A program made the translations under genes and the position numbers. DNA of 64,000 bases from a bacterium (GTDB lineage Bacteria > Patescibacteriota > Minisyncoccia > 1-14-0-10-42-19), in the NCBI GenBank assembly GCA_030690215.1, contig JAUYHD010000016.1, positions 17,681 to 81,680 on the forward strand. The letters run 5' to 3'. Positions 6,921-47,930 of the stretch are shown one piece after another. Numbering within the stretch: the first letter of the stretch is position 1; each line of letters opens with the position of its first letter. Below the pieces are notes generated by a model. That model made no database searches and was not told where the DNA came from. It worked only from the letters and a program-made list of their open reading frames with translations.

Positions 6921-6935
6921 TCCCGACAGCAAAGG

Positions 6936-7006
6936 TGGACCCGCGGAGAATCGAACTCCGGCCTACCGGATGCAAACCGGTCGTTTTACCACTGAACTAC
7001 GGGCCC
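6936..7006 (-). tRNA. tRNA-Ala (anticodon TGC)
   Basis: Reverse complement GGGCCCGTAGTTCAGTGGTAAAACGACCGGTTTGCATCCGGTAGGCCGGAGTTCGATTCTCCGCGGGTCCA; G3:U70 Ala identity pair; cloverleaf folds; no encoded CCA. Confidence 0.9.
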
Positions 7007-9521: not shown

Positions 9522-9645
9522 ATAATTATATTAAAAAAATCCATATATTTATAGTACCATATAGTCTTCTAATTCTTATACACACAGAAATAGCAATAAA
9601 AAGAGCGGAACTTATAAAAAGCCCCGCTCTATTTTTTTTAATTGC

Positions 9646-11109: not shown

Positions 11110-11279
11110 GTAAACCCCCCGTTTTTGAATGTTTTTTTTAATGTAAACCTGGGCTCATTCTACTATAAAATTAATAAAATGTCAATACATACATTGACAA
11201 CTATAAATAAATATAGTATAGTTACTTAAATCAATTTAAACGTAGTACAATAAAAACATACCATTAAGGAGGTATCAGT

Positions 11280-11744
11280 ATGAACAAAGAATCGCCCGAT
11301 ATTAAAAACGATGCGGAAAAAATTCCAAACTATACAATGGAATTTTCTCAAACCAATTTTGAAACGGGCCCAAATGAATGTATCCTAAAAATCGTGATCA
11401 ACGAAAACGGGGAAGAAAAAACATTGGAAGCCCACTGGCCAAAGGAAGGAATCCAACTTTTTGATCCTCAAACAAAACGAGAATTGGAATTTGTATCACC
11501 CAAGACCATGAAAAAAATGTACGACCAGTTTATGTCGCTTAACCCTTCTTATCATGCTCTTATGGAGATGCGAGAAACTCGTTCCCTCCTAAAGTTTTTT
11601 TGGCTATCTCCGAAGAAACAAAAAGATCTTGTTGATCTTCTGAACATGGGGTCAACTAAGAAAGAAGCAGAACGCATCATGAAGATGCCCGAAGAAGAAC
11701 AAAAAAATATCTCTAAGGAGAACCCAGTGCATCGTCCAACATAA
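11280..11744 (+). CDS. Hypothetical protein
   Basis: AAGGAGG RBS 7 nt upstream of ATG; 154 aa; no recognised domain. Confidence 0.5.
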   Translation: MNKESPDIKNDAEKIPNYTMEFSQTNFETGPNECILKIVINENGEEKTLEAHWPKEGIQLFDPQTKRELEFVSPKTMKKMYDQFMSLNPSYHALMEMRETRSLLKFFWLSPKKQKDLVDLLNMGSTKKEAERIMKMPEEEQKNISKENPVHRPT

Positions 11745-11790
11745 AAGAGTTCCGAAAAAATCGGAACTCTTTTGCTTTTTACCTGAATTG

Positions 11791-12084
11791 TTAAAATTTT
11801 TTTATTTCTACGTGCCCGCACTTATAGCAATCCCCTCGCCATCGCCTAACGCCCCCAAGAACCAAAAATGGCGACCGTGTGTATTCTAACGTGCAGAGCA
11901 GACAATTCGGACATTGGTACGGCGTTCTCCAAATACCCAATTCTTTGCACACCCACCTATGCATGCGTAACGGCATAAAAAAAAGAAAGCCAATCAGTAT
12001 AAAAACGAGAAATAAAATTACAAAAAAAACAAACGCTACTACATTAAATCCCTCTTCGCCAAACCGCATTATTCTCTGATACAT
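11791..12084 (-). CDS. Small membrane-anchored zinc-ribbon protein, hypothetical
   Basis: Internal ATG preceded by AAAGGGGGGGAG; one TM helix; C-terminal CPNC...CYKCGH. Confidence 0.4.
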   Translation of the reverse strand: MYQRIMRFGEEGFNVVAFVFFVILFLVFILIGFLFFMPLRMHRWVCKELGIWRTPYQCPNCLLCTLEYTRSPFLVLGGVRRWRGDCYKCGHVEIKKF

Positions 12085-12147
12085 ACTCCCCCCCCCTTTA
12101 TTTAGTATTGTTTTTTTAAAATCCGATAATATGCTACCATAAAAAAT

Positions 12148-13095
12148 ATGATCGGTACATCCTTCGACAAAGCTCAGGACAGGCCCCACACGTCCCCAAA
12201 AGATGTTTTTCTCCATCTCTTAATGGTAGGGACGCTCTATGCGAGCGTCATCAGTTTTATTACGCTTCTCTTTCAATATATACAGTATTACTTTCCCGAT
12301 GTTCTTGATTATTCTGCCCCATCCCTTTCGTTTACAGCGCAAAGCTCAATGGCAACGCTTATTATTGTGTTCCCTGTTTTTTTGTTTCTTTCGCATCTCC
12401 TGCAAAAAGAATTCAAAGCGCATGAAGAAAAATCAAAATCGCGTCTCCGAAAATGGCTGCTTTCTTTCACGTTATTCGTTGCCGCGATTGTTATTATTGT
12501 TGACCTTGTAACCCTCATACAAAGTTTTCTTGGCGGAGAACTTACTGTCCGTTTTTTGCTAAAAAACGCAACTGTTCTTTTTGTCATAAGCGCTGTGTTC
12601 GGCTACTATCTCCACCAGCTCAAAAAAACAAAACCGGAAGCAACCCGCAACGAGCGGATATTTGTTTGGGCTGTATCATTCGTGGCCGTTCTTTCAATCG
12701 TGCTTGGTTTTATCCTTACCGGCTCACCCGCAACACAGCGCCTCATGCAATTTGACCAAGAACGCATCTGGAACCTCCAAACTATCCAGTCTCAACTTGT
12801 GTTTCATTTTCAGCAAAAAGGCGCTCTCCCCGAAACGCTTACGAACATATCGGATGACATTTCCGGATTTGCATTACCGCGCGATCCTGAAACCGGCAAG
12901 GAATATGAATACCAAAAAAGCGGCGAGTTTTCGTTCACGCTATGCGCCGACTTTAAAACAGAATATATAATCTCAGGAAAAATTCCTTCGCGCCCCATAC
13001 ACTCATTTGAAACGTGGGACCATGGAATCGGACACGCTTGTTTTGCCCGCACCATTGATCCGGATTTCTATCCTGTGCGAGAAAAAATATTGTAA
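12148..13095 (+). CDS. Membrane protein, hypothetical; the N-terminus contains repeat-derived sequence TSFDKAQDRP
   Basis: 4-5 TM helices then a soluble C-terminal domain; nt 12161-12183 CCTTCGACAAAGCTCAGGACAGG is identical to a 23-mer inside thrS. Confidence 0.5.
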   Translation: MIGTSFDKAQDRPHTSPKDVFLHLLMVGTLYASVISFITLLFQYIQYYFPDVLDYSAPSLSFTAQSSMATLIIVFPVFLFLSHLLQKEFKAHEEKSKSRLRKWLLSFTLFVAAIVIIVDLVTLIQSFLGGELTVRFLLKNATVLFVISAVFGYYLHQLKKTKPEATRNERIFVWAVSFVAVLSIVLGFILTGSPATQRLMQFDQERIWNLQTIQSQLVFHFQQKGALPETLTNISDDISGFALPRDPETGKEYEYQKSGEFSFTLCADFKTEYIISGKIPSRPIHSFETWDHGIGHACFARTIDPDFYPVREKIL

Positions 13096-13127
13096 AAAAG
13101 ATCTTTTACATCGGGGGAAAGATAGCC

Positions 13128-13592
13128 ATGGAAGAAAACCTCTATATTGTAAGCATCCTTGCAGTCCCCAGAAACAAAGATGACGAATCGCGAGATATCA
13201 CGATACACATTCTCTCATTCATCTCCTGCTCGGAAGAAGAAGCAGATACGATAGCGAATGAACACATTGGCGTTTCGTTTTCAGCCGTATCATGGAAAGT
13301 GGAGTATGACCTGCTAGAAATTTCTCTTGACGATATATTGGAAGATATCCAATCATATGAAGACTCCGTACAGGCGTTCGCGATAGGACTGGTGCTTTTA
13401 AATCCCGACGGAGCGGGAATGCGATACCACGTTTCTTCTCATCTTATATGCGCATATTCAAAAGAAAGCGCGGAAAAACTTGCGCTCGCCTACGCGCATG
13501 AACACTTCCCTTTCTTTAAAGACCACATCGCGAAAGTAGAAGAAATACCTCCGAATATTCGTTTTTGTACGACAACATCAAAAATTCATTAA
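13128..13592 (+). CDS. Hypothetical protein
   Basis: 154-aa ORF. Confidence 0.4.
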   Translation: MEENLYIVSILAVPRNKDDESRDITIHILSFISCSEEEADTIANEHIGVSFSAVSWKVEYDLLEISLDDILEDIQSYEDSVQAFAIGLVLLNPDGAGMRYHVSSHLICAYSKESAEKLALAYAHEHFPFFKDHIAKVEEIPPNIRFCTTTSKIH

Positions 13593-19388: not shown

Positions 19389-19403
19389 CCGCACTAAAAA
19401 TTT

Positions 19404-19475
19404 GGGCACATAGTTCAGTGGTAGAACGCTGTCCTGATAAGACAGAGGTGCTAGGTTCGATTCCTAGTGTGCCCA
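19404..19475 (+). tRNA. tRNA-Ile (anticodon GAT)
   Basis: GGGCACATAGTTCAGTGGTAGAACGCTGTCCTGATAAGACAGAGGTGCTAGGTTCGATTCCTAGTGTGCCCA; cloverleaf folds; no encoded CCA. Confidence 0.9.
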
Positions 19476-19489
19476 TAAATTTTCCCAAA

Positions 19490-20386: not shown

Positions 20387-21337
20387 TCAATCATTCATTA
20401 GTTCGCCAAGCCGCGGAAGATGCTTTTGAAACGCATCAAAGAGCTTTTTTGAATCCTTATCATAATGTATCCACGCTTCGTACATCCGCGGAAAATGACG
20501 GGTGTAGGTAATATCAAGCGCCAGCCCCGCATTGTTTAATACAGCAGGACACGCATTAAATGTTTTAGGCTGAGGAGTGATAGTACCGCACTCTCTTTGT
20601 AATTCGTTGAATAATTCTCTTTTTCTGTTCAGCGTATCGGCTTCCGATATTTGGAATCTATAGAAATCCGCATATAACGATTTCAGCTGTACGTAATATT
20701 TGTTTACGATAACTGCTTTTTGCATGAAAAACGCAGGCTCTAAAAAAAGATTTTTATATATCTCCGAATCTTCTCCATATTTCTCTCGTGCAAAATCAAT
20801 TGCCCCGGCAAGTCCCATCATGGTTGCCGCGGCTTCGTCTATATCCGAAGAAAGCTGGACTTCAGGAGAGACCTCTTCATGGTAATCCTCGTGAACTATG
20901 ACTGTTATAAAACGTTCGAGAGAAGCATCCGTAAGAAAACGTGTGGTGGAGGCGTTATTCCGCCCTATTCCCTCTACCTTGGAAACAAAAACATCTTTCC
21001 CTAGCGGATTGATATTACATCCCCCCTTTTTTCCTTGGGTTACACTCATACCAAAATACGTATACGGCAAAAAGAATCGTCCCGTAGAATAACAAATATA
21101 ATATGCGTCCTGCAAGAAGCTCTCCGGATGAAAGTTTTCATCTTTCCGATACCCCATGCGCTTTTCAAACTTTTTGATCTCCGCTATTACATCCTTGCGC
21201 GGAAAATCTTCTACTCCACGCGCCTTATGAACTCTGCAAGAACCGAATAAAGTATACGCAAGAATGCCAAAAAATAAAGCAATTATAATTATCCTACGCG
21301 CTATCGTTCTCAATGTATGCTCCTTTTTGCCACCCAT
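20387..21337 (-). CDS. Membrane-anchored putative zinc metallopeptidase (HEDYH, HExxH-type)
   Basis: N-terminal TM; IVHEDYHE motif. Confidence 0.45.
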   Translation of the reverse strand: MGGKKEHTLRTIARRIIIIALFFGILAYTLFGSCRVHKARGVEDFPRKDVIAEIKKFEKRMGYRKDENFHPESFLQDAYYICYSTGRFFLPYTYFGMSVTQGKKGGCNINPLGKDVFVSKVEGIGRNNASTTRFLTDASLERFITVIVHEDYHEEVSPEVQLSSDIDEAAATMMGLAGAIDFAREKYGEDSEIYKNLFLEPAFFMQKAVIVNKYYVQLKSLYADFYRFQISEADTLNRKRELFNELQRECGTITPQPKTFNACPAVLNNAGLALDITYTRHFPRMYEAWIHYDKDSKKLFDAFQKHLPRLGELMND

Positions 21338-24358: not shown

Positions 24359-25378
24359 ATGGCAGTCATTAAAAAACATCCGATTCTTGCCGGCATAGGA
24401 ATAGGAGCGCTTCTCCTAGTAACTATCTTTCTGGTACTTATCTCGCTTACCCCCGCAAAAACCCCAAAAACATACGGTGTCACCTTCTCCCCCTTTTACG
24501 CGGAACGTTTCAATGTTCATTGGAAAGATGCGTATATTGCAATTCTTGACGATCTTGGCGTAAAGCACATTCGCCTTTCTGCGTATTGGAACGAGGTAGA
24601 AAAAACAGAACGTGTTTTTAATTTTTCCGATCTTGACTGGCAAATTCAAGAGGCGGAAAAACGGAATGTGGATATTGTGCTCGCCATCGGCAAAAAACTC
24701 CCTCGCTGGCCGGAGTGCCACATCCCCGAGTGGATAGAGGGCCTTACGCCCGAAGAACAACATGAAAAACTGCTTCGTTATATTTCAGAAACCATTCTTC
24801 GCTATAGGGACTCTCCGGCAATCACTCTATGGCAAATTGAAAATGAACCATTACTGCCATTCGGCGAATGTGTCCATATTTCTGAACAAGAGCTGGAAAA
24901 TGAACTGGCATTCGTGCGCGCGCTTGATTCGCGCCCCATACTTATCACCGCGTCAGGAGAACTCTCATTCTGGACAAAGGAAATAAAATACGCCGATGTA
25001 TTCGGCTCTACTCTCTATCGCATTGTATGGAACGATTCTCTCAAAAGACATATCACCTACCCCCTCCCCTCGTCCTTTTATCGCGCAAAACAAACTATCG
25101 CGCGCCTATTTGGAGGCAATAAACCGATGCTCGTTATAGAACTTCAGGGAGAATCTTGGAACAAAAAAATGACATACGAACTCCCCATAGAAGAACAGTA
25201 TATATCCATGAATCCCGAACGATTCCAGGGTGTTCTTTCGTATGCCTCGCGCACCGGCTTTGACACATTTTATCTATGGGGTGTTGAGTGGTGGTATTGG
25301 TTAAAAGTTACGCAAGATAAACCCGAAATGTGGGATATAGCGAAAGAAGCGATATATAATGCGAATATAGAAAAATAA
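24359..25378 (+). CDS. Membrane-anchored GH-A clan glycoside hydrolase (GH5-like, IENEP acid/base motif)
   Basis: N-terminal TM; WQIENEP; TIM-barrel-like length. Confidence 0.5.
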   Translation: MAVIKKHPILAGIGIGALLLVTIFLVLISLTPAKTPKTYGVTFSPFYAERFNVHWKDAYIAILDDLGVKHIRLSAYWNEVEKTERVFNFSDLDWQIQEAEKRNVDIVLAIGKKLPRWPECHIPEWIEGLTPEEQHEKLLRYISETILRYRDSPAITLWQIENEPLLPFGECVHISEQELENELAFVRALDSRPILITASGELSFWTKEIKYADVFGSTLYRIVWNDSLKRHITYPLPSSFYRAKQTIARLFGGNKPMLVIELQGESWNKKMTYELPIEEQYISMNPERFQGVLSYASRTGFDTFYLWGVEWWYWLKVTQDKPEMWDIAKEAIYNANIEK

Positions 25379-27012: not shown

Positions 27013-27558
27013 TTGAAAAAAATACTACCCGGGATTATTTTACTTGTACTTTTTTTAGGATGTAGCGGAGCGGGAAATAATTTTCCCATACATGACAACT
27101 CGCACATAACAGACTATGGAATTGAATTTTTCCATAATGAATTCTACACAACCGACGAATTAAACGAGGCAGCACATACAGTGGACGTATATTTTGAAAT
27201 GGCTCAAGAGTGCGCAAAATCTATATATCCTGATATGACCGACGCGATTTACAGCTTGCCCGCTGAAGATATGCAAATTGTTGTACAGTTTCCTGACAAA
27301 TATAATCCGCAAACGGGACAAGAGGCTTTTTCATGTAAGTTTTCTAAAAAAGGATGCGCGGGAATATACTATATAGGCGGCACAATTGATATAACCCCGT
27401 CCCTTGACGCGCTCGGCCATGAAATGTCCCATTGGATAAATTTTATGCTCTTCGGAGAAACGAGTGACGATAACCCAAGTGACTTATCACAGGTATGCAA
27501 ATTTTCTTCAATCTGCCATCTCTATTCGCAAAACCGAAACCTCATAGCATGCCGATGA
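27013..27558 (+). CDS. Lipoprotein, putative zinc metalloprotease (HEMSH)
   Basis: Lipobox LFLGCSG; LGHEMSHW HExxH motif. Confidence 0.45.
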   Translation: MKKILPGIILLVLFLGCSGAGNNFPIHDNSHITDYGIEFFHNEFYTTDELNEAAHTVDVYFEMAQECAKSIYPDMTDAIYSLPAEDMQIVVQFPDKYNPQTGQEAFSCKFSKKGCAGIYYIGGTIDITPSLDALGHEMSHWINFMLFGETSDDNPSDLSQVCKFSSICHLYSQNRNLIACR

Positions 27559-27852: not shown

Positions 27853-30800
27853 ATGAAAAAAAATCTGTTCGGGGTTCTGACACTTGGAATCCTGGTTATT
27901 GTATCAAGTTTCGTTTCTACATCCGATGTTGCCGTAGCAGCACCTGTCCCTGGCAGCATAACCGTGTTTGCTTCTGATACTGGTGTTAACGACGCAACCG
28001 TGGGTACGCGAATTTGGGGCAATCCTCAAAATGTTTCAAGCAGTGATGACGTGTCCGCCCAGGCAAACTTCATAGAGGACCAGGATTTGATTACGCGGTA
28101 TCTCCGCGTTGCTCCTCAATCACTATCTGCAATCCCCGCAGGAAGCACTATTACCGGCATACAAGTTAGCGTTGAAAAGAAAAGGGGGGCAGCGGTTACT
28201 GTTAGGGATTATTCTATACGCCTTTATAAATCGGCGGGTTTTATAGGAAACAACAAAGCCGATACTGGCACTAACTGGCCCGCGTCAGACCAAACCTTCA
28301 CGTATGGGGGGTCGGGAGACTTATGGGGCGCCACATGGACAAGAGACGAAGTAGTAAATAATTTGCAGGTTGGGATTTCCGCCCAAAATACTTTTAACGG
28401 AGGGGCAGGGGCCGTCATTGATTCTATTCAATTCACTATTTGGTATGAATACACTCCGCCCGCCCCAACCGTAATTGAAGCAGACAACACCGTGTTTGCT
28501 GCAACTACCGGCGTCAACGACACAACCGTGGGTACAAAAATTTGGGGTACTACCAATAATATCGCGGCAAGCGATGATGCGTACTCACAAGTAAACCTTT
28601 TGACAGGCGGAGATATATCAAGGTATCTCCGTGTTGCTCCGCAGTCACTTTCTTCAATTCCTGAAGGGAGCACAATTAAAGGCATACAAGTCAGCATTGA
28701 GAAAAGTAGAGGTACGCAATTTGTTAAAGATTATTCTATACGCCTCTACAAATCCGGAACGGGCTACATAGGCAGCGACAAAGCTAACACAAGCGTTAAC
28801 TGGCCTGCTTTAGATGAAATAGTTACCCATGGAGGTAATGGTGATTTGTGGGGGACCACATGGACCAGAGATGAAGTGGTTAATAATTTGGAAGTGGGAA
28901 TTTCCGCCCAAAACCAAACTACCACTTCAGCAGGAGCAAAGATCGATTCCATACAGTTTACTATTTGGTATGAATACACTCCGCCCGCCCCAACCGTTGA
29001 CCTAAAAGCAAACAGCGCCAACGGACCAATATCAATTGACTACAACACAGGTGCAACACTTTCGTGGGCTTCGACAAACGCAACATCGTGTGCCGCATCA
29101 AACGCATGGTCCGGAACAAAAGGCACATCAGGGTCAGAATCAACCGGAAATCTTACAGCATCAAAAACATACACGATAACGTGTACAGGGACAGGGGGAA
29201 GCGCAAATGATAGCGTTACAATAAATGTCCTCGCACCACCGCCCCCACCTCCTCCGCCACCGCCTCCTCCGCCTCCTCCGGCAACAACTGTATGCCAAGG
29301 CTCTGTAACTCTCTATCAACACATCAACTATATCGGTTATTCAGCGGGTTTTGATGTTGGCACCTACACCCTTGCACAACTTCAAGCATGCGGAGTTATT
29401 AACAACGACATATCTTCAATGAAGGTACCGAATGGCTACCAGGCAACGTTATATGATGGAGACAACTATTCAGGAATAAGTCTTACGCGAACTACTGACG
29501 ACAGCACATTGGTAGATGACGGGTTTAATGATTTAACTACATCGCTACGCGTAACAACCATTTCAACAACACCCACTCCTCCACCTCCGCCACCTCCATC
29601 GCCGGAACCTTCTCCAACTCCCCCACCGCCACCTCCTCCAACAAGCAACCTTGCTTTCCAAATTAATGACAAAATCCAAGTAACATCAGGACCTCTCAAT
29701 GTAAGAAGTTGCGCAAGCTTATCTTGCAACTCTCTTGGTATACAACCAACAGGTTCTTTGGGGTCAATTATCGGAGGCCCAACATTTGCAGATGGATTTT
29801 TCTGGTGGAATATCAATTACGATAACGCTCCGGATGGTTGGTCGGTTGAAAATTTCTTAACTCTCGTAACCTCAACTCCTCTACCACCTCCTCCACCGCC
29901 ACCGCCTCCAGCACCAGAACCTTCTCCAGCTCCACCGCCGCCACCTCCTCCAACAAGCAACCTTGCTTTCCAAATTAATGACCGTATTCAAGTAAACACA
30001 GGGAGCTCGGAATTTAATCTTAATGTCCGATCAACAGCAAATGGCACGATCGTTGGACAGCAATCAAACGGTGCGTTGGGAACTATTATCGGTGGGCCTC
30101 AAAGTGCTGGCAGCCACACATGGTGGAATGTTAATTTTGATGTAGCGCCTGATGGATGGGTTGCTGGAGATTTTCTTGTCACCAGTTCATCTCCTTCTCC
30201 AACACCTCCACCTCCGCCACCTCCTCCAGCACCGGAACCTTCTCCAACTCCCCCACCGCCACCTCCTCCAACAACAACCCTACTTTCTATTCCCGGAACC
30301 ATACAAGCAGAAAGCTATAAAGTAGGGGGCGAGGGTATTGGGTATCATGACACTACCCCAACAAACGATGGGGGCGCCGGGACTCGCAATGATGGAGTGG
30401 ATATAAAAGATGTCCCGGGTGAAGGTTTGACTATCGGATTTACAAATATCGGCGAATGGCTTGCATACGATGTAAGTGTCTCCCAAGGAGGGACATACTC
30501 TATTGATCTCCGCATCGCAAACGGAGAAACAACAAATCGTTCTCTCCACCTGGAAATAGACGGAACAAATAAAACCGGTTCGGTTACCGTGCCATCTACC
30601 GGATCATGGAACACACAAACAACTATTACAGTGCCCAATGTTTCCCTTACCCAAGGAACTCATGTATTGCGCGTTGTGTTTGACAATACCCCGCTTGATC
30701 TCAATTGGATGTTGTTTAATTTTGTTTCTTCCGGAAGTCCGTCTGCGCCTTCTGTGTCCACAAAATTCCAGATAAACGACCGCGTGCAAACAACAGACAA

Positions 30801-32835
30801 TCTTAATGTCCGCTCAATACCTTCAACTGTAACTGGGGTGGTGCTCGGCACGCACCAAACGGGATCACTCGGGACAATTATTGGCGGACCCGTTTTTGCA
30901 AACAATATTTGGTGGTGGCAAGTAAATTACGATAACAATCCTGACGGCTGGTCTGCTGAAAACTTTTTAACAAAATCAACAACGTCAGCACCACCGCCGC
31001 CGCCTCCTCCGACAACCATAGACATCAAAGCAAATAGCTCCGATGGACCAATATCCATTGCGTATAATTCAAGCGCAACACTTAGTTGGACTTCCTCAAA
31101 CACAACATCTTGCACCGCATCAAACGCATGGTCCGGAACAAAAAGCACATCGGGATCAGAATCAACCGGAAATCTTACGGAATCAAAAACATACACAATG
31201 ACCTGCACAGGAACTGGAGGAAGCGCAAATGACAGTGTCACGGTTAATGTAAATCCTCTGTCGACTCCTCCGCCTCCTCCCCCACCACCTCCATCTTCTA
31301 GCAATGAAGCACTCATATATGTAGATAATCAAAATTCCTCTGCTTCAGATTCTAACCCAGGAACAGTAACAAGCCCGCTAAGAACTATCGGCAAAGCCGC
31401 TCAACTAGCAAACTCAAAAAATAAGAGCGGAATTCCGGTACGAATTATTGTAAAAGCAGGCACATATCGAGAGTCGGTTGCATTCAATGATGAAACCGGC
31501 ATCACAACATCACCTATTACTATTGAGGGATCCCCCATCGGACAAGCAATTATTTCAGGATCAGATGTATGGACAGGATGGACTTCTACATCAGGTCTCT
31601 GGGTTCATGACTGGCCTTATGACTGGGGCGCGGTTTCCTGGCTTGGCGTACCCTCCGGAGAACTCGCAAGACGCCGCGAAATGGTATTCGTAAACGGTGA
31701 ACACTACATGCAAGCTCTTTCAACGGGAGAACTGACGGACAAAACCTTTTATGTAGATGAGGTCAACAATAAAATCTATGTAAAATCTTCCACCAATCTG
31801 AACACCTCAAAAGTAGAAGTCGGCACCCGGAAAGGAATATTCTATGCAAAGAATAGGCAAAACTTTACAATACGGGGCATGATATTCCAACACGATACCA
31901 CTGCCGGTGATTTATCTGGTGTTAATTTCGTCCTCATGAAAAACCTTGTCATAGAAGACAGTAAATTTTTGTGGAATAACTGGGGTGGGATGCAAATTAC
32001 AAGAGGTGAGGGAATTACCGTACGCAGACTCGTTGGTAATTATAATGGCGGGAAAGGAACAGAAATGGTGTTTAGCAAAAATGCCTTATGGGAAGATATA
32101 GAAAGTTCATATAACAACTGGCGCGGAGATTCGGGAGGGTTCAACCAATGGAGTGTCGCAGGTTCAAAGCACTTAAGGAACCGAGATGTTACATATCGTA
32201 ATTTTGTCGTCGCCAACAACAAAGCGAGAGGATTTTGGCTCGATTATGATAACTCTGGCATTGTTTTTGACGGTCTTATTTCTATTAATAATTATGAGAG
32301 CGGTATCTCTCTTGAAGCCAACCAGGGTCCGATACTTGTAAAAAATAGCGCAATCTGTGGGAACGGCGACTATGACGGAGTAAGAACCTCAACTTCATGG
32401 GGCGGACTTATTTCTGCAAACTCCATGAACATTACTATCCAGGATAGTGTTTTCTATCGGAACGTTGTTACTAATATTCGGACTCACGGAGCAAACATCC
32501 GACCGATCAACGATTTCGTAACAGGAGGGGTGCATGACGGAATATCGAAAAATTGGACATGGACGGGCATCGTTGATGTGGGCCAAGGCACAAATGAGTT
32601 GCTTGTGTATAGAGTAGATGACGCTACTGAATTTTTGGATACCCTTACGGTAAACAACAATATTTATTGGAACCCTACTGACCCAAATACATTCAATGCT
32701 AATGGGAGAACAGATTTTGCCGGATGGAAAACTAAAACCGGTCAAGAGCAAAACTCGGTATTTGCCGATCCAAATACTCTTTCTTTGACCAGCCAACAAA
32801 GAGCACTGCTAGACAGATGCATTGCTAGCTACTAA
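27853..32835 (+). CDS. Giant secreted multidomain surface protein (1660 aa). Signal peptide; 2x about 175-aa repeat; 2x Ig-like; poly-Pro linkers; beta/gamma-crystallin; 3x SH3b-like; CBM6-like; C-terminal right-handed beta-helix.
   Basis: Duplicated NxNGPISIxYNxxATLSWxSxNxTSCxASNAWSGTK Ig-like units (29000-29235, 31017-31255); Greek-key CQGSVTLYQHINYIGY...; CBM6-like LSIPGTIQAESYKVGGEGIGYHD...GEWLAYDV...LNWMLF; beta-helix NFTIRGMIFQHD... Confidence 0.7.
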   Translation: MKKNLFGVLTLGILVIVSSFVSTSDVAVAAPVPGSITVFASDTGVNDATVGTRIWGNPQNVSSSDDVSAQANFIEDQDLITRYLRVAPQSLSAIPAGSTITGIQVSVEKKRGAAVTVRDYSIRLYKSAGFIGNNKADTGTNWPASDQTFTYGGSGDLWGATWTRDEVVNNLQVGISAQNTFNGGAGAVIDSIQFTIWYEYTPPAPTVIEADNTVFAATTGVNDTTVGTKIWGTTNNIAASDDAYSQVNLLTGGDISRYLRVAPQSLSSIPEGSTIKGIQVSIEKSRGTQFVKDYSIRLYKSGTGYIGSDKANTSVNWPALDEIVTHGGNGDLWGTTWTRDEVVNNLEVGISAQNQTTTSAGAKIDSIQFTIWYEYTPPAPTVDLKANSANGPISIDYNTGATLSWASTNATSCAASNAWSGTKGTSGSESTGNLTASKTYTITCTGTGGSANDSVTINVLAPPPPPPPPPPPPPPPATTVCQGSVTLYQHINYIGYSAGFDVGTYTLAQLQACGVINNDISSMKVPNGYQATLYDGDNYSGISLTRTTDDSTLVDDGFNDLTTSLRVTTISTTPTPPPPPPPSPEPSPTPPPPPPPTSNLAFQINDKIQVTSGPLNVRSCASLSCNSLGIQPTGSLGSIIGGPTFADGFFWWNINYDNAPDGWSVENFLTLVTSTPLPPPPPPPPPAPEPSPAPPPPPPPTSNLAFQINDRIQVNTGSSEFNLNVRSTANGTIVGQQSNGALGTIIGGPQSAGSHTWWNVNFDVAPDGWVAGDFLVTSSSPSPTPPPPPPPPAPEPSPTPPPPPPPTTTLLSIPGTIQAESYKVGGEGIGYHDTTPTNDGGAGTRNDGVDIKDVPGEGLTIGFTNIGEWLAYDVSVSQGGTYSIDLRIANGETTNRSLHLEIDGTNKTGSVTVPSTGSWNTQTTITVPNVSLTQGTHVLRVVFDNTPLDLNWMLFNFVSSGSPSAPSVSTKFQINDRVQTTDNLNVRSIPSTVTGVVLGTHQTGSLGTIIGGPVFANNIWWWQVNYDNNPDGWSAENFLTKSTTSAPPPPPPPTTIDIKANSSDGPISIAYNSSATLSWTSSNTTSCTASNAWSGTKSTSGSESTGNLTESKTYTMTCTGTGGSANDSVTVNVNPLSTPPPPPPPPPSSSNEALIYVDNQNSSASDSNPGTVTSPLRTIGKAAQLANSKNKSGIPVRIIVKAGTYRESVAFNDETGITTSPITIEGSPIGQAIISGSDVWTGWTSTSGLWVHDWPYDWGAVSWLGVPSGELARRREMVFVNGEHYMQALSTGELTDKTFYVDEVNNKIYVKSSTNLNTSKVEVGTRKGIFYAKNRQNFTIRGMIFQHDTTAGDLSGVNFVLMKNLVIEDSKFLWNNWGGMQITRGEGITVRRLVGNYNGGKGTEMVFSKNALWEDIESSYNNWRGDSGGFNQWSVAGSKHLRNRDVTYRNFVVANNKARGFWLDYDNSGIVFDGLISINNYESGISLEANQGPILVKNSAICGNGDYDGVRTSTSWGGLISANSMNITIQDSVFYRNVVTNIRTHGANIRPINDFVTGGVHDGISKNWTWTGIVDVGQGTNELLVYRVDDATEFLDTLTVNNNIYWNPTDPNTFNANGRTDFAGWKTKTGQEQNSVFADPNTLSLTSQQRALLDRCIASY

Positions 32836-32881: not shown

Positions 32882-32925
32882 AAATACCCTGCATTTTATG
32901 CGGGGTATTTTTTGATTCCTCCGTA
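32882..32925 (+). terminator. Rho-independent terminator after the giant gene (ATACCCTGCATTTTATGCGGGGTATTTTTTG)
   Basis: GC stem followed by T-run. Confidence 0.6.
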
Positions 32926-32960
32926 GACAAATACTCGGCAGAACTATATAATAAAATTGT

Positions 32961-33071: not shown

Positions 33072-33246
33072 TTTTATCGCAACATTCGGAAGTCCGACTT
33101 CCGAATTTGGACTAATGCGCAAAACCCGACCTAGCACATTTTTATTAACACGAGCGGTGTTTCGGTGTAGACACATATCTTTTAAAAAGCTATAATGAGG
33201 GTGTAATAAAAGTCGATTATTTAAATATTTAATTATTGAAAAATAT

Positions 33247-33960: not shown

Positions 33961-36192
33961 CTTTTTGAGAGTTTGATCCTAGCTCAGGATGAACGCTGGC
34001 GGCGTGGATAAGGCATGCAAGTCGTACGGTCGTGCCTCTCTATCGCTCAGCACTCCCTAAGCTCAAAGTGTAAAACGAAAAGTTCAAAACTAATGTGAAA
34101 TAATTTCAACAAAGTTGAAATTATTATTCCTCAGTTTTACGTTTTTATTTTTGAGTTTTTAGTTTGAGTGCCGAACGGCAGTGAGGCACGACAGTGGCAG
34201 ACGGGGTAGTAACACGTAGGTACATACCACTGAGACAAGAATAACCCAGAGAAATCTGGGATAATACTTGATAGTCTAGTGATCGATTTTCCCTCACAAG
34301 ATGTTTTAATTTTTAATTCTCAATTATCAATTTTCAATAAAAATTTGGAAATTGAAACTTTCTCGCCTCGCCGTAGCTTTAGCGAAGCGGAAACATTGTC
34401 CGCCAGAGGCGGATCCTCCTCCGGAGGAAAAATTCAAAACAGTCCTTGCGGGTAAAAATCGGTTACTAGTAAAGGTTCGTAAGAACCGCTCGGTGAATGG
34501 CCTGCGGGCTATCAGCTTGTTGGTGAGGTAACGGCTCACCAAGGCTATGACGGCTAGGGGGTGTGAGAGCATGGCCCCCACCAATGGAACTGAGACACGG
34601 TCCATACATCTACGGATGGCTGCAGTCGAGAATATTGGGCAATGGGCGAAAGCCTGACCCAGCGACGCCGCGTGCAGGATGAAGGCCTTCGGGCTGTAAA
34701 CTGCTTTTATGGGGGAGGAATCCCCTCCTTGAGGTTGAGTGTGGTACAATCACGCTATGTATTATGTATATATCCTGAAATTAAATAATGAAAAATTATA
34801 CATCGGATACACTGTGGATTTAAAAAGGCGTATTGTTGAACACGAAACAGGAATGAGTATGCATACTAAAAAATTTTTACCTTGCATGCTTGTTTATTAT
34901 GAAGCATACAAATCACGAAAAGATGCGATGAAGCGTGAGAAAAATCTAAAAAAATTCAAAAGTTCATACAGACAATTAAAAATACGTATTGCTTCAAGTA
35001 TATTCGACACCAAGGAGGGGATGACGTTACCCCATGAATAAGGGCTTGCTAACCTCGTGCCAGCAGCCGCGGTAATACGAGGGGCCCAAGCGTTATCCGG
35101 AATCACTGGGCGTAAAGGGTTCGTAGGGGGTTGTATTAGTCCTATGTTAAAGCCTTCGGCTTAACCGAAGAAATGCATAGGAAACGGTATAACTGGAGGG
35201 TGTGAGAGGCTGATGGAACTCACGGTGTAGGGGTGAAATCCGTTGATATCGTGGGGAACACCAAATGCGAAGGCAATCAGCTGGCGCATTCCTGACCCTG
35301 AAGAACGAAAGCGTGGGGATCGAAAAGGATTAGATACCCTTGTAGTCCACGCCCTAAACGTTGATGACTAGCTATTGGAAGTATCGACCCTTCCAGTGGC
35401 GTAGCTAACGCGTTAAGTCATCCGCCTGGGAATTACGATCGCAAGATTAAAACTCAAAGGAATAGACGGGGACTCGCACAAGCGGTGGAGCATGTGGTTC
35501 AATTCGATGATAAGCGAAAAACCTTACCAGGGCTAGAAATTCTAGTGAAGTCGACCCGAAAGGGACGATGTCTCACAAGGACACTAGGACAGGTGCTGCA
35601 TGGTTGTCGTCAGTTCGTGGTTTGAACTGTTCCCTTAAGTGGGTCAACGAACGCAACCCCCGTTGCCTGTTATACATGTCAGGCAAGACTGCCCCTCACT
35701 TTGCGCACAAGCGCAAAGTGAGTTTACTAGTTACGCCTTGCTCTAGTTTGCTAGTTTAAATTTTACAACTAGAAAACTAAAGTGAGCAGAGCGAACGTAA
35801 CTAGAAAACTCACTTTGTTCGTTTGCGAACAAAGTGAGGGGAGGAAGGTGGGGATGACGCCAAATCAGCATGGCCCTCGACGTCCTGGGCTACACACATG
35901 CTACAATGGCACGTACAAAGGGCCGCAAAAGAGCAATCTGGAGCAAATCCCATCAAAACGTGCCCTAGTTCGGATTGAGGTCTGCAACTTGACCTCATGA
36001 AGCTGGAATCGCTAGTAATCGCAGATCAGCACGCTGCGGTGAATACGTTCTCGAGTCTTGTACTCACCGCCCGTCAAGTCAGGGAAGTCGGGAGTACCCG
36101 AAGTGCCAGGTATCTGGCCCGAAGGTAAGCTCGATAACAAGGACTAAGTCGTAACAAGGCACGGCTAGCGGAAGCTGGTCGTGGATCATTAT
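33961..36192 (+). rRNA. 16S rRNA gene, about 2.23 kb, with four insertions. (a) 34063-34170 hairpin element; (b) about 34275-34480 V2 expansion; (c) about 34720-35020 GIY-YIG ORF; (d) about 35694-35848 palindromic insertion. The 3' end is ...GGATCATTATCT and lacks CCUCC.
   Basis: Conserved blocks AGAGTTTGATCCTAGCTCAG, GTGCCAGCAGCCGCGGTAATAC, GGATTAGATACCCTTGTAGTCC, GCATGTGGTTCAATTCGATG, TACACACCGCCCGTCA, AAGTCGTAACAAGG read in order. Confidence 0.9.
34757..35041 (+). CDS. GIY-YIG nuclease-family ORF embedded in the 16S rRNA V3 insertion (possible intron-encoded homing endonuclease)
   Basis: MYYVYILKLNNEKLYIGYTVDLKRRIVEHETG is a canonical GIY-YIG motif; the ORF 3' end runs into the conserved TGACGTTACC rRNA sequence. 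Confidence 0.7.
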   Translation: MYYVYILKLNNEKLYIGYTVDLKRRIVEHETGMSMHTKKFLPCMLVYYEAYKSRKDAMKREKNLKKFKSSYRQLKIRIASSIFDTKEGMTLPHE

Positions 36193-36338
36193 CTAAACTA
36201 TTTCCGATATTCATTTGATTTTTATCAAAAGAAGAAGCGGAACAGTTAGGCGATACTCCCACTGGGAGTAATAGGTGTTAGTCGCGGAGCCTTTAAATCG
36301 CGACTTGAACGGAGCAAAAGAAAACGCACATACACAAA

Positions 36339-36798: not shown

Positions 36799-39363
36799 AT
36801 GGAAGTAACCGCAATAGGAAAGTTTCTCTATGAAGCTCTTGATAAATTTATTGAAGGGCAGGAAGGATTAAAAAAATTCCTCCCCATAAGCTTCCTCGCA
36901 AAAGAAAGCATGCTTATTATCGGTCCCACGGGAACCGCTAAAACCCTCTCGAGCGAATTGATAGCTCACGCAACAGACTTACACCTTCATCATGTACAGG
37001 GCACAAATGAGATGACCATAAATCAGATCATTGGGCCTGCGGTACTCATCCGTGAAAAAACCGATCTCGGCCACGGAAAGGAAGAAGAAAAAATATTTGA
37101 GGGATTTGAGCCAGGCTGTTTTCTTCGGTGTGATACCGGATTTTTTGACGAAATCACGCGAGCGCCTGACGAGATAATGAATGTTCTTCTCCCTATCCTG
37201 AATGAAGGAAGATATGAATATTTCAATCCATCAACCAAAAAGGAAGAATGGACACATTCTTCTATGCGCCAGCTTATTGCCGCGGCAAACCCGAAAAGCA
37301 GGTCTTCAAAACTCTTGGAAGAACAGGTTGTAGACCGGTTCTCCTTGGGAGTTATCTGCAGAAACCTCATATTCAAAAAGAGGTTTAAAAATTTGCGTGA
37401 AGCAATGAGACGGTCGCGTACATGGCCCGAAAATCTTCTTGAAGCCCCGATAAGCAAGGAAATGAAAGGAAGGGTAAGCAAAAGCGATCTGGACAAAGCG
37501 TATGAATGCGTCGGCGGGAGCGATCCTCGGATAAAAATACCTCTTATCGTAACATGGGCTCTTGTGTCTCTCCTCGATATCATCATAGAGACGCGTAATC
37601 TCCAGGAAGACGACGCGGTGTTCACCGACCGAGCCGCTATCGCAAAACTTCATAAGCTTTTGCGGGCGCACGCGCTTTTTGAAGGACGCCTGAAAGTTTC
37701 ATGGGATGACTTCCGCGTATTTTATGGCTACATCACTCACCGAGTGGAAAAAATCCACAGGAAACCGATAAATCATCTGGTTGAGCTGTTTATAGACACG
37801 CTGAAACATCATGTCTATACAAAAGAAATAGCGCAAACTCTTGATGAGCTGGACAAATTAAAAGAAACTATTGACCACAGCTTAGCTGAAGAGAAACAGC
37901 GGGAAGAAAATCTAACGCACGCTCAAGCGCTTGAAACAAAAGCGGAGGCATTTTTCGAAGAGATAAAATCTTTTTTTATAACGGCAAAGGACGCGCTCGC
38001 ACAGATCAACACCTATGAAGAATTGCGCGACGCAACATCCGAAAAGCCCTTTGAAGGAAGTTTTAAGGATGTCCCTTCGCCTGATAAAAAAGAGAGCGCT
38101 CCCCCCGCAGACCAACTCAAAAATCAGGAGCCAAAGAAAGAAGACCAAAACCCTGCGCCGAAAGACAAAGAACCGCAGGGGCACCGAGAACAGGGAGCAA
38201 AAGACAAAAAAATGACGTTTAATGATTTTTTTCTTGATCAGCAAGAACCAACCATTGAGCTCTCCACCTCTCAAACGCATGAAGCGGGCCCTGAAACCGA
38301 TATAGATCTGCGCGGTATAAAAAACTTTGAGACTGCCGAAAGTGTGAATATCTTCCTTGTAGAGATAGGACGCCTTAAAGAAAGTTTTCGGGTGCAGAGA
38401 AAGAAAGAGCACCCTCGCCGGGGCGAAATATCCCACAGAAAACCAATAAAAAATCTTGAGGATATAAAAAAAGCGGAACCTTCGCGGATTCCCGAATATA
38501 TTGATTCGGGCGCGCCAAAACCACTGATAAAAATACGAACGGTCCCCGACATATGCCTATTTACCGCGCGGGATGTTTCGTATTCTATGGCAGGTGAAGT
38601 GGCGGGCAAAGGAACGCTTGCGACAAAAGGGAATCTGGCACGCTGGGCATCCCAGATTGATATTGCAATCTGCCATGAAGGACAGCAAAGAGATTTCTCC
38701 TATGCTCATATGGACTTCAGCGAGCGGCAGTATTTCTCAACAGAACAGAGGATTGCTCTTGCCGAACAGATGAGACTCATCTCCCCTGATATTTCAAAAA
38801 TAGAAAAGCTCATACACTCTACCGATTGCAAAGGAGCTACCGACATTGAATTCATGATAGAGACGGCACTATCCCATATTGAGGAACGCACCAAACGGTA
38901 TGGAGAAATGCTTACCTTTCTTGTCCCTATAACTGACGGGATAGAAACTATCCGCCACGGAAAACTTGATGCACTGCTTGCGGCATGCGTCAAAAAATCT
39001 ATCGTTATTACGCCGGTATTCATTTTTGACCCATTGGGTATAAAGGGTCAGGAATATATCGTCTATAAAAACGGACGGATGACAGATCTGAAAGCTCCGA
39101 GCACCATCAGCCATATGGCTGAGGAAACGGAAGGTATGATCTTTTGGGGAATACAGGACAGCGAGCACGACAGAGTCGCATTCGCGACAAAGGATACTGC
39201 GCTTAGAATAATACGGGCGCTCGCGCATACCAGCAAGATAGAAGCTCCCCGATTTTCCTCCACGGGAAAGAACTATCGGTCTTTCGGAAACAATATGAGT
39301 ACTGACGGAGAAAAACAAAAAACTCCGTTCAATACTGAAAATCTTTATAAGACAGGTACATAA
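36799..39363 (+). CDS. Fused MoxR-like AAA+ ATPase (N-terminus) and von Willebrand factor A domain with MIDAS (C-terminus), 854 aa
   Basis: Walker A GPTGTAKT; Walker B and sensor FFDEITRAPDEIMNVLLPILNEGRY; C-terminal ARDVSYSMAG (DxSxS MIDAS) and ITDGIE; long charged linker. Confidence 0.65.
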   Translation: MEVTAIGKFLYEALDKFIEGQEGLKKFLPISFLAKESMLIIGPTGTAKTLSSELIAHATDLHLHHVQGTNEMTINQIIGPAVLIREKTDLGHGKEEEKIFEGFEPGCFLRCDTGFFDEITRAPDEIMNVLLPILNEGRYEYFNPSTKKEEWTHSSMRQLIAAANPKSRSSKLLEEQVVDRFSLGVICRNLIFKKRFKNLREAMRRSRTWPENLLEAPISKEMKGRVSKSDLDKAYECVGGSDPRIKIPLIVTWALVSLLDIIIETRNLQEDDAVFTDRAAIAKLHKLLRAHALFEGRLKVSWDDFRVFYGYITHRVEKIHRKPINHLVELFIDTLKHHVYTKEIAQTLDELDKLKETIDHSLAEEKQREENLTHAQALETKAEAFFEEIKSFFITAKDALAQINTYEELRDATSEKPFEGSFKDVPSPDKKESAPPADQLKNQEPKKEDQNPAPKDKEPQGHREQGAKDKKMTFNDFFLDQQEPTIELSTSQTHEAGPETDIDLRGIKNFETAESVNIFLVEIGRLKESFRVQRKKEHPRRGEISHRKPIKNLEDIKKAEPSRIPEYIDSGAPKPLIKIRTVPDICLFTARDVSYSMAGEVAGKGTLATKGNLARWASQIDIAICHEGQQRDFSYAHMDFSERQYFSTEQRIALAEQMRLISPDISKIEKLIHSTDCKGATDIEFMIETALSHIEERTKRYGEMLTFLVPITDGIETIRHGKLDALLAACVKKSIVITPVFIFDPLGIKGQEYIVYKNGRMTDLKAPSTISHMAEETEGMIFWGIQDSEHDRVAFATKDTALRIIRALAHTSKIEAPRFSSTGKNYRSFGNNMSTDGEKQKTPFNTENLYKTGT

Positions 39364-46583: not shown

Positions 46584-47930
46584 CTACAATGTACACTTCG
46601 GCATCTTCCATTCTTTGACCATGGCATCAACCGCCGCTTGCCCCATCGCTGTTTTTACCCCTTTTTCAAAATTGCACAATGCTATGCGGGGCCCCTTCAC
46701 AAGCCCGGGAATACTTAATGCCGAAAAGAGATTTTTCATTTTAGCTGTCCCGTATTTATTGTGGAGCCCATCAAGCACCACCGCCATAATGTCCCATGGG
46801 ATTATTTCCGTATCATTCCTTTTCACCGTCTTGCCCGCATTCGTATCAATATACACATCAAGCAATGTCAAAGAGAAATCGCTCTTGAACGCCGCGACCT
46901 CTTTTGAAAATCCGGGAAAGTTATTATTAGTCGCGAATACATTAACGCCTACCGCGCGCCCGCACCGAAGAGCCGTATAATGAGGAGTAAACGCTCCCGG
47001 ATAAAGCACGTCCATATGATCATAAAATGGGAATTTCGTTCCTCTGCCCATCTCGTAATACGCTATCCAATGATCCCCCGGATTTGTAATATCAAATTGA
47101 TTCCATACGCTCTGGAGAATCTCTGCTTTCATACCCGCACCGCACCCTGCACCGCACGTGGTCGGCGCAACCCCAACTATCGCCGTCTTTACCCCGCGAT
47201 GATCGTCAAAATAAGGGCCCGCAACCGAACCATAGAGCGTGGTATATGTTTGCCTACATACCGCATACCACTTCATAAACCTAGTAACATCTCCCAGTGA
47301 ATATTTGCTTGTGGGTGGCGCGTAGAATGAGACAAGCGGCAACGAATAACCATGTCGGGTAAATGTCCCTTTGTGCCCATCATATGTGACTATTCCATGG
47401 TCTTTAGCAAGCCCCGCTGTCGTATTTGAAGGTGGAGGCGGGGTCACGGTAGAAGAAAACGATTCTACTTTCATAGAAGACATCTTGTCGTTCCATCCAT
47501 CGTCTACCAATGTTGAATCACCTACGGTCCGCTTGATTGAAGCTCCGCCAAAATTATCAAGATTATACAAAATAACACGATACCCCGACGGAACCCGAAA
47601 GGAAGAAATTGTATTATTTGAAATCCCACACGCTTTGAGTTTTGCGAGCGTGTATTCTCCTGGGCCGAATCCTGCCGAAGCCCCCTTAAAATTGATATCT
47701 ACATACACTCGTACTGGGCCGTTACATACCTTCAATGAGGGTTGCTCTATAGCTGACGGGAATGAAAATCTAAGGAACCAAGGTACGGCCGAGTAATTAA
47801 ATGGACCATTAAAATTCATCTGAATAAAAATGCTGATCCCTATCAAGACAGAAAATGCAAAAAAAACAAGCGTGTGTTTCCCCGTATTTTTAATATTTTT
47901 ATCCAAAAATTTTTTTAGCGCCTTGAACAT
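46584..47930 (-). CDS. Secreted/membrane-anchored protein with a beta/gamma-crystallin domain paralogous to that of the giant protein, plus a 290-aa C-terminal domain of unknown function
   Basis: VCNGPVRVYVDINFKGASAGFGPGEYTLAKLKACGISNNTISSFRVPSGYRVILYNLDNFGGASIKRTVGDSTLVDDGWND against giant-protein ...DDSTLVDDGFND. Confidence 0.55.
   Translation of the reverse strand: MFKALKKFLDKNIKNTGKHTLVFFAFSVLIGISIFIQMNFNGPFNYSAVPWFLRFSFPSAIEQPSLKVCNGPVRVYVDINFKGASAGFGPGEYTLAKLKACGISNNTISSFRVPSGYRVILYNLDNFGGASIKRTVGDSTLVDDGWNDKMSSMKVESFSSTVTPPPPSNTTAGLAKDHGIVTYDGHKGTFTRHGYSLPLVSFYAPPTSKYSLGDVTRFMKWYAVCRQTYTTLYGSVAGPYFDDHRGVKTAIVGVAPTTCGAGCGAGMKAEILQSVWNQFDITNPGDHWIAYYEMGRGTKFPFYDHMDVLYPGAFTPHYTALRCGRAVGVNVFATNNNFPGFSKEVAAFKSDFSLTLLDVYIDTNAGKTVKRNDTEIIPWDIMAVVLDGLHNKYGTAKMKNLFSALSIPGLVKGPRIALCNFEKGVKTAMGQAAVDAMVKEWKMPKCTL

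Follow-up and report, generated by a model that had tools for sequence, protein, structure and literature searches.

The closest described relative of the C-terminal module of the protein analysed here is XylC, the GH120 beta-xylosidase of Thermoanaerobacterium saccharolyticum (PDB 3VST; PMC3507262), which is a cytoplasmic, tetrameric exo-enzyme. In XylC, Asp382 is the proposed nucleophile and Glu405 the proposed acid/base, while Lys358 is hydrogen-bonded to Asp382 (PMC3507262). A second point of comparison is GH141, represented by the alpha-L-fucosidase BT_1002 (PDB 5MQP), Xyn141E and endo-fucanases (PMC12786026), with an Asp/Asp pair (D523/D564) set 41 residues apart. Further comparators are exported beta-helix proteins encoded beside exopolysaccharide (EPS) biosynthesis genes, such as the polysaccharide lyase RbmB of Vibrio cholerae (PDB 9OZD) and Pantoea WceF (6TGF), whose fold is trimeric and resembles a tailspike. 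Enzymes of this EPS-locus type, RbmB among them, trim the matrix polysaccharide of their own cell or break it down (PMC11637428). Finally, Paenibacillus ChiW (PMC5132251) and clostridial multi-CBM enzymes possess a signal peptide and a catalytic domain together with several linkers and modules for binding, an arrangement that tethers the glycan-cleaving domain to its substrate.

We propose that a 1660-aa protein encoded in the window (the whole 64-kb stretch of DNA analysed) is an exported, multivalent glycan-binding protein and a GH120-like retaining enzyme acting on extracellular polysaccharide, a reading that we put at a probability of roughly one half. The protein shares with ChiW-type CAZymes the tethering of a putative glycan-cleaving domain, yet it has neither an SLH domain nor an LPXTG motif, two of its module types have no Pfam family, and its catalytic-type domain lies outside the named GH families. 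The modular secreted CAZyme plan is already known; here it most likely combines an enzyme family and a family of binding-type domains that both lack a name.

The open reading frame (27853-32835, forward strand) begins with ATG and encodes 1660 aa, exactly the position and length given in an earlier note on this DNA; alternative start codons are limited to GTG at codons 38 and 50. The single hydrophobic segment spans aa 3-32 (Kyte-Doolittle >1.6), and the protein is likely exported by means of this Sec-type N-terminus, from which a signal peptide may be cleaved. Motif and hydropathy scans found no LPXTG-like motif and no C-terminal hydrophobic anchor, and Pfam and NCBIfam scans found no recognised anchoring domain. 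The remainder consists of two N-terminal repeats, two Cys-pair units, one crystallin module, three SH3-like units, one CBM6 module and a C-terminal beta-helix module of 512 aa. The poly-proline linkers described in the earlier note are six in number, with P runs of 7-15 (aa 461-479, 571-598, 678-702, 777-809, 1042-1055 and 1137-1150). The features of the protein, and those discussed elsewhere in the window, are as follows.

27853..27939, forward: signal peptide or N-terminal anchor, aa 1-29 (MKKNLFGVLTLGILVIVSSFVSTSDVAVA), the sole hydrophobic segment
27940..28455, forward: N1, first copy of an unnamed jelly-roll (CBM/MAM-like) domain of ~165 aa, with the motif YGGSGDLWG
28456..28974, forward: N2, second jelly-roll copy, 65.5% identical to N1 (N-domain family profile iE=4e-49)
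28975..29238, forward: Ig1, Cys-pair module of ~85 aa (C413, C444), aa 375-462, 81% identical to Ig2
29284..29568, forward: beta/gamma-crystallin module, aa 478-572, comprising two Greek keys, each with a Ca-site signature (Pfam Crystall, 28.4 bits)
29641..29889, forward: SH3-like unit a, aa 597-679, sharing 55-58% identity with units b and c (SH3_3, 13 bits)
29953..30186, forward: SH3-like unit b, aa 701-778, recognised by identity to its sister units and by profile score
30274..30732, forward: CBM6 carbohydrate-binding module, aa 808-960 (Pfam CBM_6, 69.3 bits)
30733..30981, forward: SH3-like unit c, aa 961-1043, recognised by identity to its sister units (SH3_3 sub-threshold)
31012..31269, forward: Ig2, Cys-pair module (C1087, C1118), aa 1054-1139, 81% identical to Ig1
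31297..32832, forward: catalytic-type module at the C-terminus, aa 1149-1660, a right-handed beta-helix interrupted by a beta-sandwich and distantly similar to GH120
32167..32169, forward: K1439, aligned with XylC Lys358, which positions the nucleophile (conserved in 121/121)
32242..32244, forward: D1464 in GFWLDYDN, aligned with XylC Asp382, the proposed nucleophile (121/121)
32314..32316, forward: E1488 in ISLEANQGP, aligned with XylC Glu405, the proposed acid/base (120/121)
20387-21337, reverse: HExxH open reading frame (HEDYH; Aminopep, 27.7 bits)
27013-27558: HExxH open reading frame (HEMSH) with a lipoprotein-like signal and no Pfam match
47460..47741, reverse: paralogous beta/gamma-crystallin module in a second exported protein, aa ~64-157 (Crystall, 33.6 bits)

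Whole-protein Pfam and NCBIfam scans under-report these domains (CBM_35_2 alone passed), and the modules were hence scanned singly. Exact look-up of the 1660-aa protein in a collection of 15 billion proteins returned no record, while neighbouring proteins from the same MAG are on record there; a genome scan found no full-length relative among GTDB species representatives. Repeat misassembly was considered and judged unlikely. The internal module copies are 65-85% identical in DNA, which points to old, diverged duplications and makes an artefact of identical repeats improbable. Promoter and terminator scans around the open reading frame gave signals at or below chance.

The C-terminal 512 aa constitute one conserved unit, with 635 relatives among the 8000 candidates scored, the best of them 51% identical over 99% coverage. 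Most are single-domain proteins of ~510-600 aa, labelled only 'right-handed parallel beta-helix repeat-containing protein'. No named NCBIfam family claims these relatives, and WcaM and the other named NCBIfam families were set aside, with all matches far under cutoff. The C-terminal beta-helix expected from the earlier note was recovered both by HMM (Beta_helix, PF13229, 27.7 bits against a cutoff of 25.9 for the isolated domain) and in an AlphaFold (AF2) model of stacked short strands (pLDDT 95.4, pTM 0.93). Foldseek searches with this model placed 3vst first (E=1.5e-16, TM 0.66) and BT_1002 second, and the top matches were all beta-helix proteins. Further, the module has a beta-helix core with a beta-sandwich inserted after the first ~75 residues, as in GH120.

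At the sequence level, homology to GH120 emerges only from the family as a whole. A phmmer search of the PDB with the single C-terminal sequence found nothing significant, and 3VST was not reported at E<=1. A 60-sequence family profile, by comparison, matched 3VST at E=3.1e-24, and the match is collinear in three stretches corresponding to the N-terminal cap, the post-sandwich segment and the catalytic coils. The profile match to GH141 reached only E=6e-4 and was confined to the N-terminal cap.

When catalytic residues were sought in the predicted helix, as the earlier note had suggested, three candidates appeared. By alignment, K1439, D1464 and E1488 seem to match Lys358, Asp382 and Glu405 of XylC, and they are conserved almost without exception across 121 family members that are only 35-50% identical. 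Their spacing of 25 and 24 residues is close to the 24 and 23 of XylC, as would be expected of positions on successive helix rungs. The Asp/Glu pair, 24 residues apart, fits GH120 and differs from the more widely spaced Asp/Asp pair of GH141. The substrate-binding side is less well preserved. Of the GH120 -1 subsite set (Trp113, Gln289, Glu353, His360, Trp383 and Arg450), the three residues placed in the alignment are not conserved in the family, with Ser/Ala at Glu353, Leu at His360 and Tyr/Thr/Phe at Trp383, which makes xylosidase specificity unlikely. Given these differences, an identity to XylC of 14-18% and the lack of any pairwise sequence match, the module does not belong to GH120 by sequence and is most likely a distant GH120 relative with the same mode of action.

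Alternatively, the C-terminal beta-helix might be a polysaccharide lyase or C5-epimerase of the AlgG/AlgE or RbmB kind, targeted by the other modules in the same way. We consider this unlikely. There is indeed a match to AlgE4 (E=1.3e-6), but it starts at residue 155, after YGFDPH, and includes generic coils only; AlgE4 Asp178 aligns to a non-acidic column of the C-terminal family. The epimerase motif YG(F/I)DPH(D/E) is itself absent, and the preceding stretch of the query reads WNNWGGMQ, without DPH. The XylC match extends over 433 residues, those to lyases and epimerases over just ~290 residues of generic helix. A hydrolase, moreover, leads the profile matches by 16 orders of magnitude, and its catalytic pair is conserved. 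Neither RbmB nor WceF is specifically related in sequence to the C-terminal module.

Genomic context bears on the substrate of a GH120-like enzyme. Among the stand-alone members of the C-terminal family that start with Met, 43 of 52 have a signal-like N-terminus. Six stand-alone homologue contexts were sampled, and three of these lie within Wzx/Wzy exopolysaccharide clusters. In the first (L010), Wza, Wzc, a priming transferase, a deacetylase and Wzy precede the helix protein, which is followed by GT4 and WecG. In the second (L011), MBOAT, flippase, sulfotransferase, GT2 and GT4 genes lead up to the helix protein, after which come GT2 and three GT4 genes. In the third (L012), Wzz, a flippase-Wzy-GT2 fusion, GT4, an epimerase, WecG and an acetyltransferase are followed by the helix protein and GT2. 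Two other homologues (L013, L014) sit beside nucleotide-sugar methyltransferase, epimerase or NTP-transferase genes, and one (L009) has no glycan context. Since the stand-alone relatives are exported and are often found within exopolysaccharide clusters, the likely substrate class is polysaccharide of bacterial origin, either extracellular or capsular. In their genomic setting the stand-alone homologues resemble RbmB and WceF, as exported beta-helix proteins encoded beside exopolysaccharide biosynthesis genes, and differ from the cytoplasmic XylC.

The same contexts, together with the conserved triplet, bear on a further alternative, in which the beta-helix would be a non-catalytic, rigid binding or scaffold domain (PfbA or pertactin-type) and the protein an adhesin attaching the cell to a partner or surface. 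We consider such a role very unlikely. Without catalysis it would be difficult to account for a near-absolute Asp/Glu/Lys triplet on a known catalytic centre when members of the family share only 35-50% identity. Nor do the stand-alone members look like adhesins, being exported proteins of one domain encoded in EPS clusters.

Unlike RbmB and WceF, the 1660-aa protein is encoded outside any EPS locus and carries extensive binding modules. No EPS cluster was found in the 64-kb window. Upstream of the gene are TrmD, an EamA transporter, a weakly matched TIM-barrel GH, GH1 and a small lipoprotein-like open reading frame with HExxH; downstream is a 16S rRNA gene. This 16S gene is 2,236 nt long, with an insertion of ~700 nt that encodes a GIY-YIG protein, and tRNA-Ile and tRNA-Ala are unlinked to it. 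These features fit a Patescibacteria/CPR genome, as does the distribution of the SH3-like unit described below, and such an origin is probable. The earlier note had placed the protein among GH5-like and GH1 hydrolases and two secreted HExxH peptidases. The GH1 neighbour is secure (301 bits), whereas the supposed GH5-like enzyme at 24359-25378 has only a weak TIM-barrel GH match; both HExxH open reading frames exist, and a Pfam match (Aminopep) was obtained for 20387-21337 only. With relatives in EPS clusters and no such cluster in the window, the C-terminal module appears to have been drafted into another kind of architecture, one that is heavily 'armed', where it is fused, unlike XylC, to nine other modules.

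The most readily identified of these modules is CBM6, a label from the earlier note that holds up well above threshold (CBM_6, PF03422, 69.3 bits against a cutoff of 28.9, aligned from position 7 to 123 of a 125-position profile). A further match to CBM_35_2, at 59.1 bits, places the module in the CBM6/35 clan with CBM6 as the best fit. PDB searches matched CBM6 chains at E=2e-16 and 8zvk at E=2e-33. The module is a member of the CBM6 family, and glycan binding is predicted on that basis.

Microbial beta/gamma-crystallins of the Protein S, M-crystallin and clostrillin type have two Greek keys, with the signatures [YF]xxxx[YF]xG and, for Ca binding, [ND][ND]xx[ST]S. The module at aa 478-572 conforms to this type, being one two-Greek-key domain inside a secreted multidomain protein, predicted to bind Ca. 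Its Greek-key signatures ([YFW]xxxx[YF]xG) are YQHINYIG and YDGDNYSG, and its Ca-site signatures are NNDISS (aa 517) and NDLTTS (aa 559). The HMM assignment made in the earlier note stands for the isolated module (Crystall, PF00030, 28.4 bits against a cutoff of 25), with 18.2 bits in the whole-protein scan. Also borne out is the recurrence of this module in a second protein at 46584-47930 on the reverse strand (MDP2676394.1, 'MAG: hypothetical protein'), where the Ca-site signatures are NNTISS and NDKMSS. An alignment of the two modules spans 93 aa at 55% identity (E=2e-38). The shared motif DSTLVDDG(W/F)ND, present as DSTLVDDGFND at aa 550 of the 1660-aa protein and DSTLVDDGWND at aa 138 of the second, merely leads into the second Ca-site motif. 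In contrast to the microbial crystallins named above, it is a lineage-specific extension of that signature, common to the two proteins here. The C-terminal 276 aa of the second protein had no PDB or Pfam match.

Two further unit types are clearly repeated, and their names are less secure. The earlier note had described two Ig-like units about 85% identical; the duplication is confirmed at 81% identity, while the Ig-like label finds no support. When scanned alone, the Cys-pair units had no Pfam match at E<=10, and profile searches of the PDB gave marginal matches only, to antibody B-strand segments (E=0.03-0.1). Similarly, the three units called SH3b-like are true repeats (51-58% pairwise identity) for which the HMM assignment fails, SH3_3 (PF08239) staying below its gathering cutoff of 27 bits both in the whole-protein scan (21.4 bits) and for single units (13-15 bits). 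An 8-sequence profile of these units gave, as its top three PDB matches, the SH3b domains 2kyb, 2kq8 and 2kt8, which come from cell-wall hydrolases; the matches are weak (E=0.02-0.1). In a GTDB genome scan, relatives of the unit came mostly from Campbellbacteria, Parcubacteria and Patescibacteria MAGs, and also from one Chloroflexi MAG. The unit recurs in giant secreted Patescibacteria proteins. That recurrence and the origin of the best SH3b matches would suit a peptidoglycan- or cell-wall-directed enzyme, used for remodelling or for breaching a host wall with the SH3-like units as wall binders, but this is highly improbable, as the SH3b matches are not significant, Pfam and NCBIfam scans detected no known peptidoglycan hydrolase fold or family, and the context of the C-terminal family is EPS and not murein.

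The N-terminal repeats, which the earlier note had put at roughly 175 aa each, are 172-aa repeats (N1, aa 30-201; N2, aa 202-374) that share 65.5% identity over 174 aa (E=9e-77). Scanned alone, they had no Pfam HMM match, and a single-sequence search of the PDB returned nothing significant. A word-indexed search found one relative, from which the repeat might have been taken for an orphan. That interpretation was overturned by an exhaustive profile search, which matched 12,095 cluster representatives (clustered at 50% identity) at E<=1e-3, including 7,243 at E<=1e-10. The homologues occur mostly as tandem pairs or arrays within large proteins, in company with extracellular domains such as InlB B-repeat, Big_3, PKD, TSP3 and PG_binding, and also as stand-alone proteins of ~185 aa. 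In every source consulted they had no name beyond 'hypothetical protein', and neither the N-domain nor six of its homologues had a match in PHROGs. The domain extends to viruses: a crAss-like phage contig of ~101 kb carries two stand-alone copies in its tail module, two Caudoviricetes from aquifers have it in genes whose annotation is 'tail tubular protein A', and it is present in Methanobacterium virus PhiF1. It is plausible that the domain binds cell-surface ligands. With ~12,000 representatives, no Pfam or PHROG model and a presence in phage tail modules, it marks a sizeable gap in domain annotation and provides a candidate receptor-binding module.

Returning to the GH120-like reading of the whole protein, a mechanism can be sketched. 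The Sec-type N-terminus would take the protein out of the cell, and the nine non-catalytic modules, with their proline-rich spacers, would provide multivalent binding and reach. The working end would be the C-terminal 512 residues, the beta-helix with its inserted beta-sandwich. By analogy with XylC, a glycosidic bond would be cut there by retaining double displacement, with D1464 as nucleophile, E1488 as acid/base and K1439 holding the nucleophile, on three successive helix rungs. The substrate class would be bacterial extracellular or capsular polysaccharide, and in a small, probably episymbiotic bacterium the enzyme may act on the glycans that coat a host or make up the surrounding biofilm.

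We also advance, more tentatively and with the odds against it as a whole, a broader proposal. The C-terminal relatives might constitute an unrecognised GH family, sister to GH120 and acting on exopolysaccharides; the module in the 1660-aa protein might be armed against the glycan coat of a host; and the N-terminal repeat might represent a new carbohydrate-binding (receptor-binding) family shared with crAss-like and other phage tail genes.

If the C-terminal family is indeed a hydrolase, it would amount to a new CAZy-type family with a catalytic hypothesis in D1464 and E1488, whose natural substrate would be the EPS of the encoding clusters. Such an activity would be useful for the enzymology of biofilm matrices. 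Current ideas are not overturned by these findings, which extend the logic of modular CAZymes to uncharacterised families. For the organism itself, the 1660-aa protein is a testable candidate for how an ultra-small CPR/Patescibacteria cell may engage or digest the surface glycans of its partner.

The exact 1660-aa product of the large exported modular protein's ORF (27853-32835, +) was not found in a 15-billion-protein collection or in the gene-position index; its neighbours, the GH1 protein and the second crystallin protein MDP2676394.1, are present in these resources. The absence of the 1660-aa product may reflect the calling of another start, a pseudogene call, or fragmentation in short-read assemblies. 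No convincing terminator was found after this ORF. Between its end and the 16S rRNA gene lie two near-consensus predicted sigma-70-like promoters, which are plausibly rRNA promoters.

Features around the 16S rRNA gene
32924-32952, +, sigma-70-like promoter (TAGACA-17-TATAAT, 11/12)
33168-33196, +, sigma-70-like promoter (TAGACA-17-TATAAT, 11/12)
33961-36196, +, 16S rRNA gene
34739-35041, +, GIY-YIG protein ORF in the 16S insertion (100 aa; Pfam 51.9 bits)
36799-39363, +, MoxR-type AAA+ protein (854 aa; N-terminal AAA_5, bpMoxR; long C-terminal extension)
19403-19476, tRNA-Ile
6934-7006, -, tRNA-Ala

At 2,236 nt against a 1,533-position model, the 16S gene must contain an insertion of ~700 nt. 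The tRNA-Ile and tRNA-Ala genes are both far from it, and the rRNA operon is therefore unlinked. Such insertions and unlinked rRNA operons are typical of CPR/Patescibacteria. The MoxR-type gene stands immediately downstream of the 16S gene.

Elsewhere in the window, the two HExxH ORFs described in the earlier note as secreted peptidases do exist, one of them (HEMSH) finding no Pfam match.

Other genes in the window
27013-27558, +, HExxH ORF (HEMSH) with a lipoprotein-like signal, LFLGC
20387-21337, -, HExxH ORF (HEDYH), Pfam Aminopep (PF10023), 27.7 bits
44898-45794, -, 298-aa ORF, N-terminal NusB (122.8 bits) and C-terminal NUDIX hydrolase (45.4 bits)

The union of NusB and NUDIX hydrolase domains in a single ORF is an unusual fusion. 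The second crystallin protein (46584-47930, -) appears to carry an N-terminal signal-anchor, with a hydrophobic segment at aa 17-41, and its ~280-aa C-terminal part (aa ~170-448) has no Pfam or PDB match.

Relatives of the unnamed N-terminal jelly-roll domain of the 1660-aa protein occur in viruses. Two stand-alone copies are encoded on a crAss-like phage contig (L008; Logan DRR438477, 101.5 kb), both in the tail module, adjoining genes with Phage_phiTE_241_C, CrAss_Ring_1/2 and crAss_MUZ domains.

Stand-alone jelly-roll copies on L008
8001-8555, first copy
9542-10108, second copy

Methanobacterium virus PhiF1 has the domain as well, as do GenBank phages MW202473 and MW202478, where the genes that encode it are annotated as 'tail tubular protein A'.

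The SH3-like unit, present in three copies in the 1660-aa protein, recurs in other Patescibacteria.

SH3-like unit in a Candidatus Campbellbacteria MAG (L004, MFAE01000006.1)
9023-13180, 1385-aa secreted protein

In this protein, SH3-like units alternate with Cys-rich repeats (C..SWSC..WSAWS.C...Q.QTR.C) similar to thrombospondin type-1 repeats, and in a further locus (L006) the unit is found together with PKD-like units and with DxNGDG repeats of dockerin-like type. Among the giant proteins of Patescibacteria, the SH3-like unit is a mobile module.
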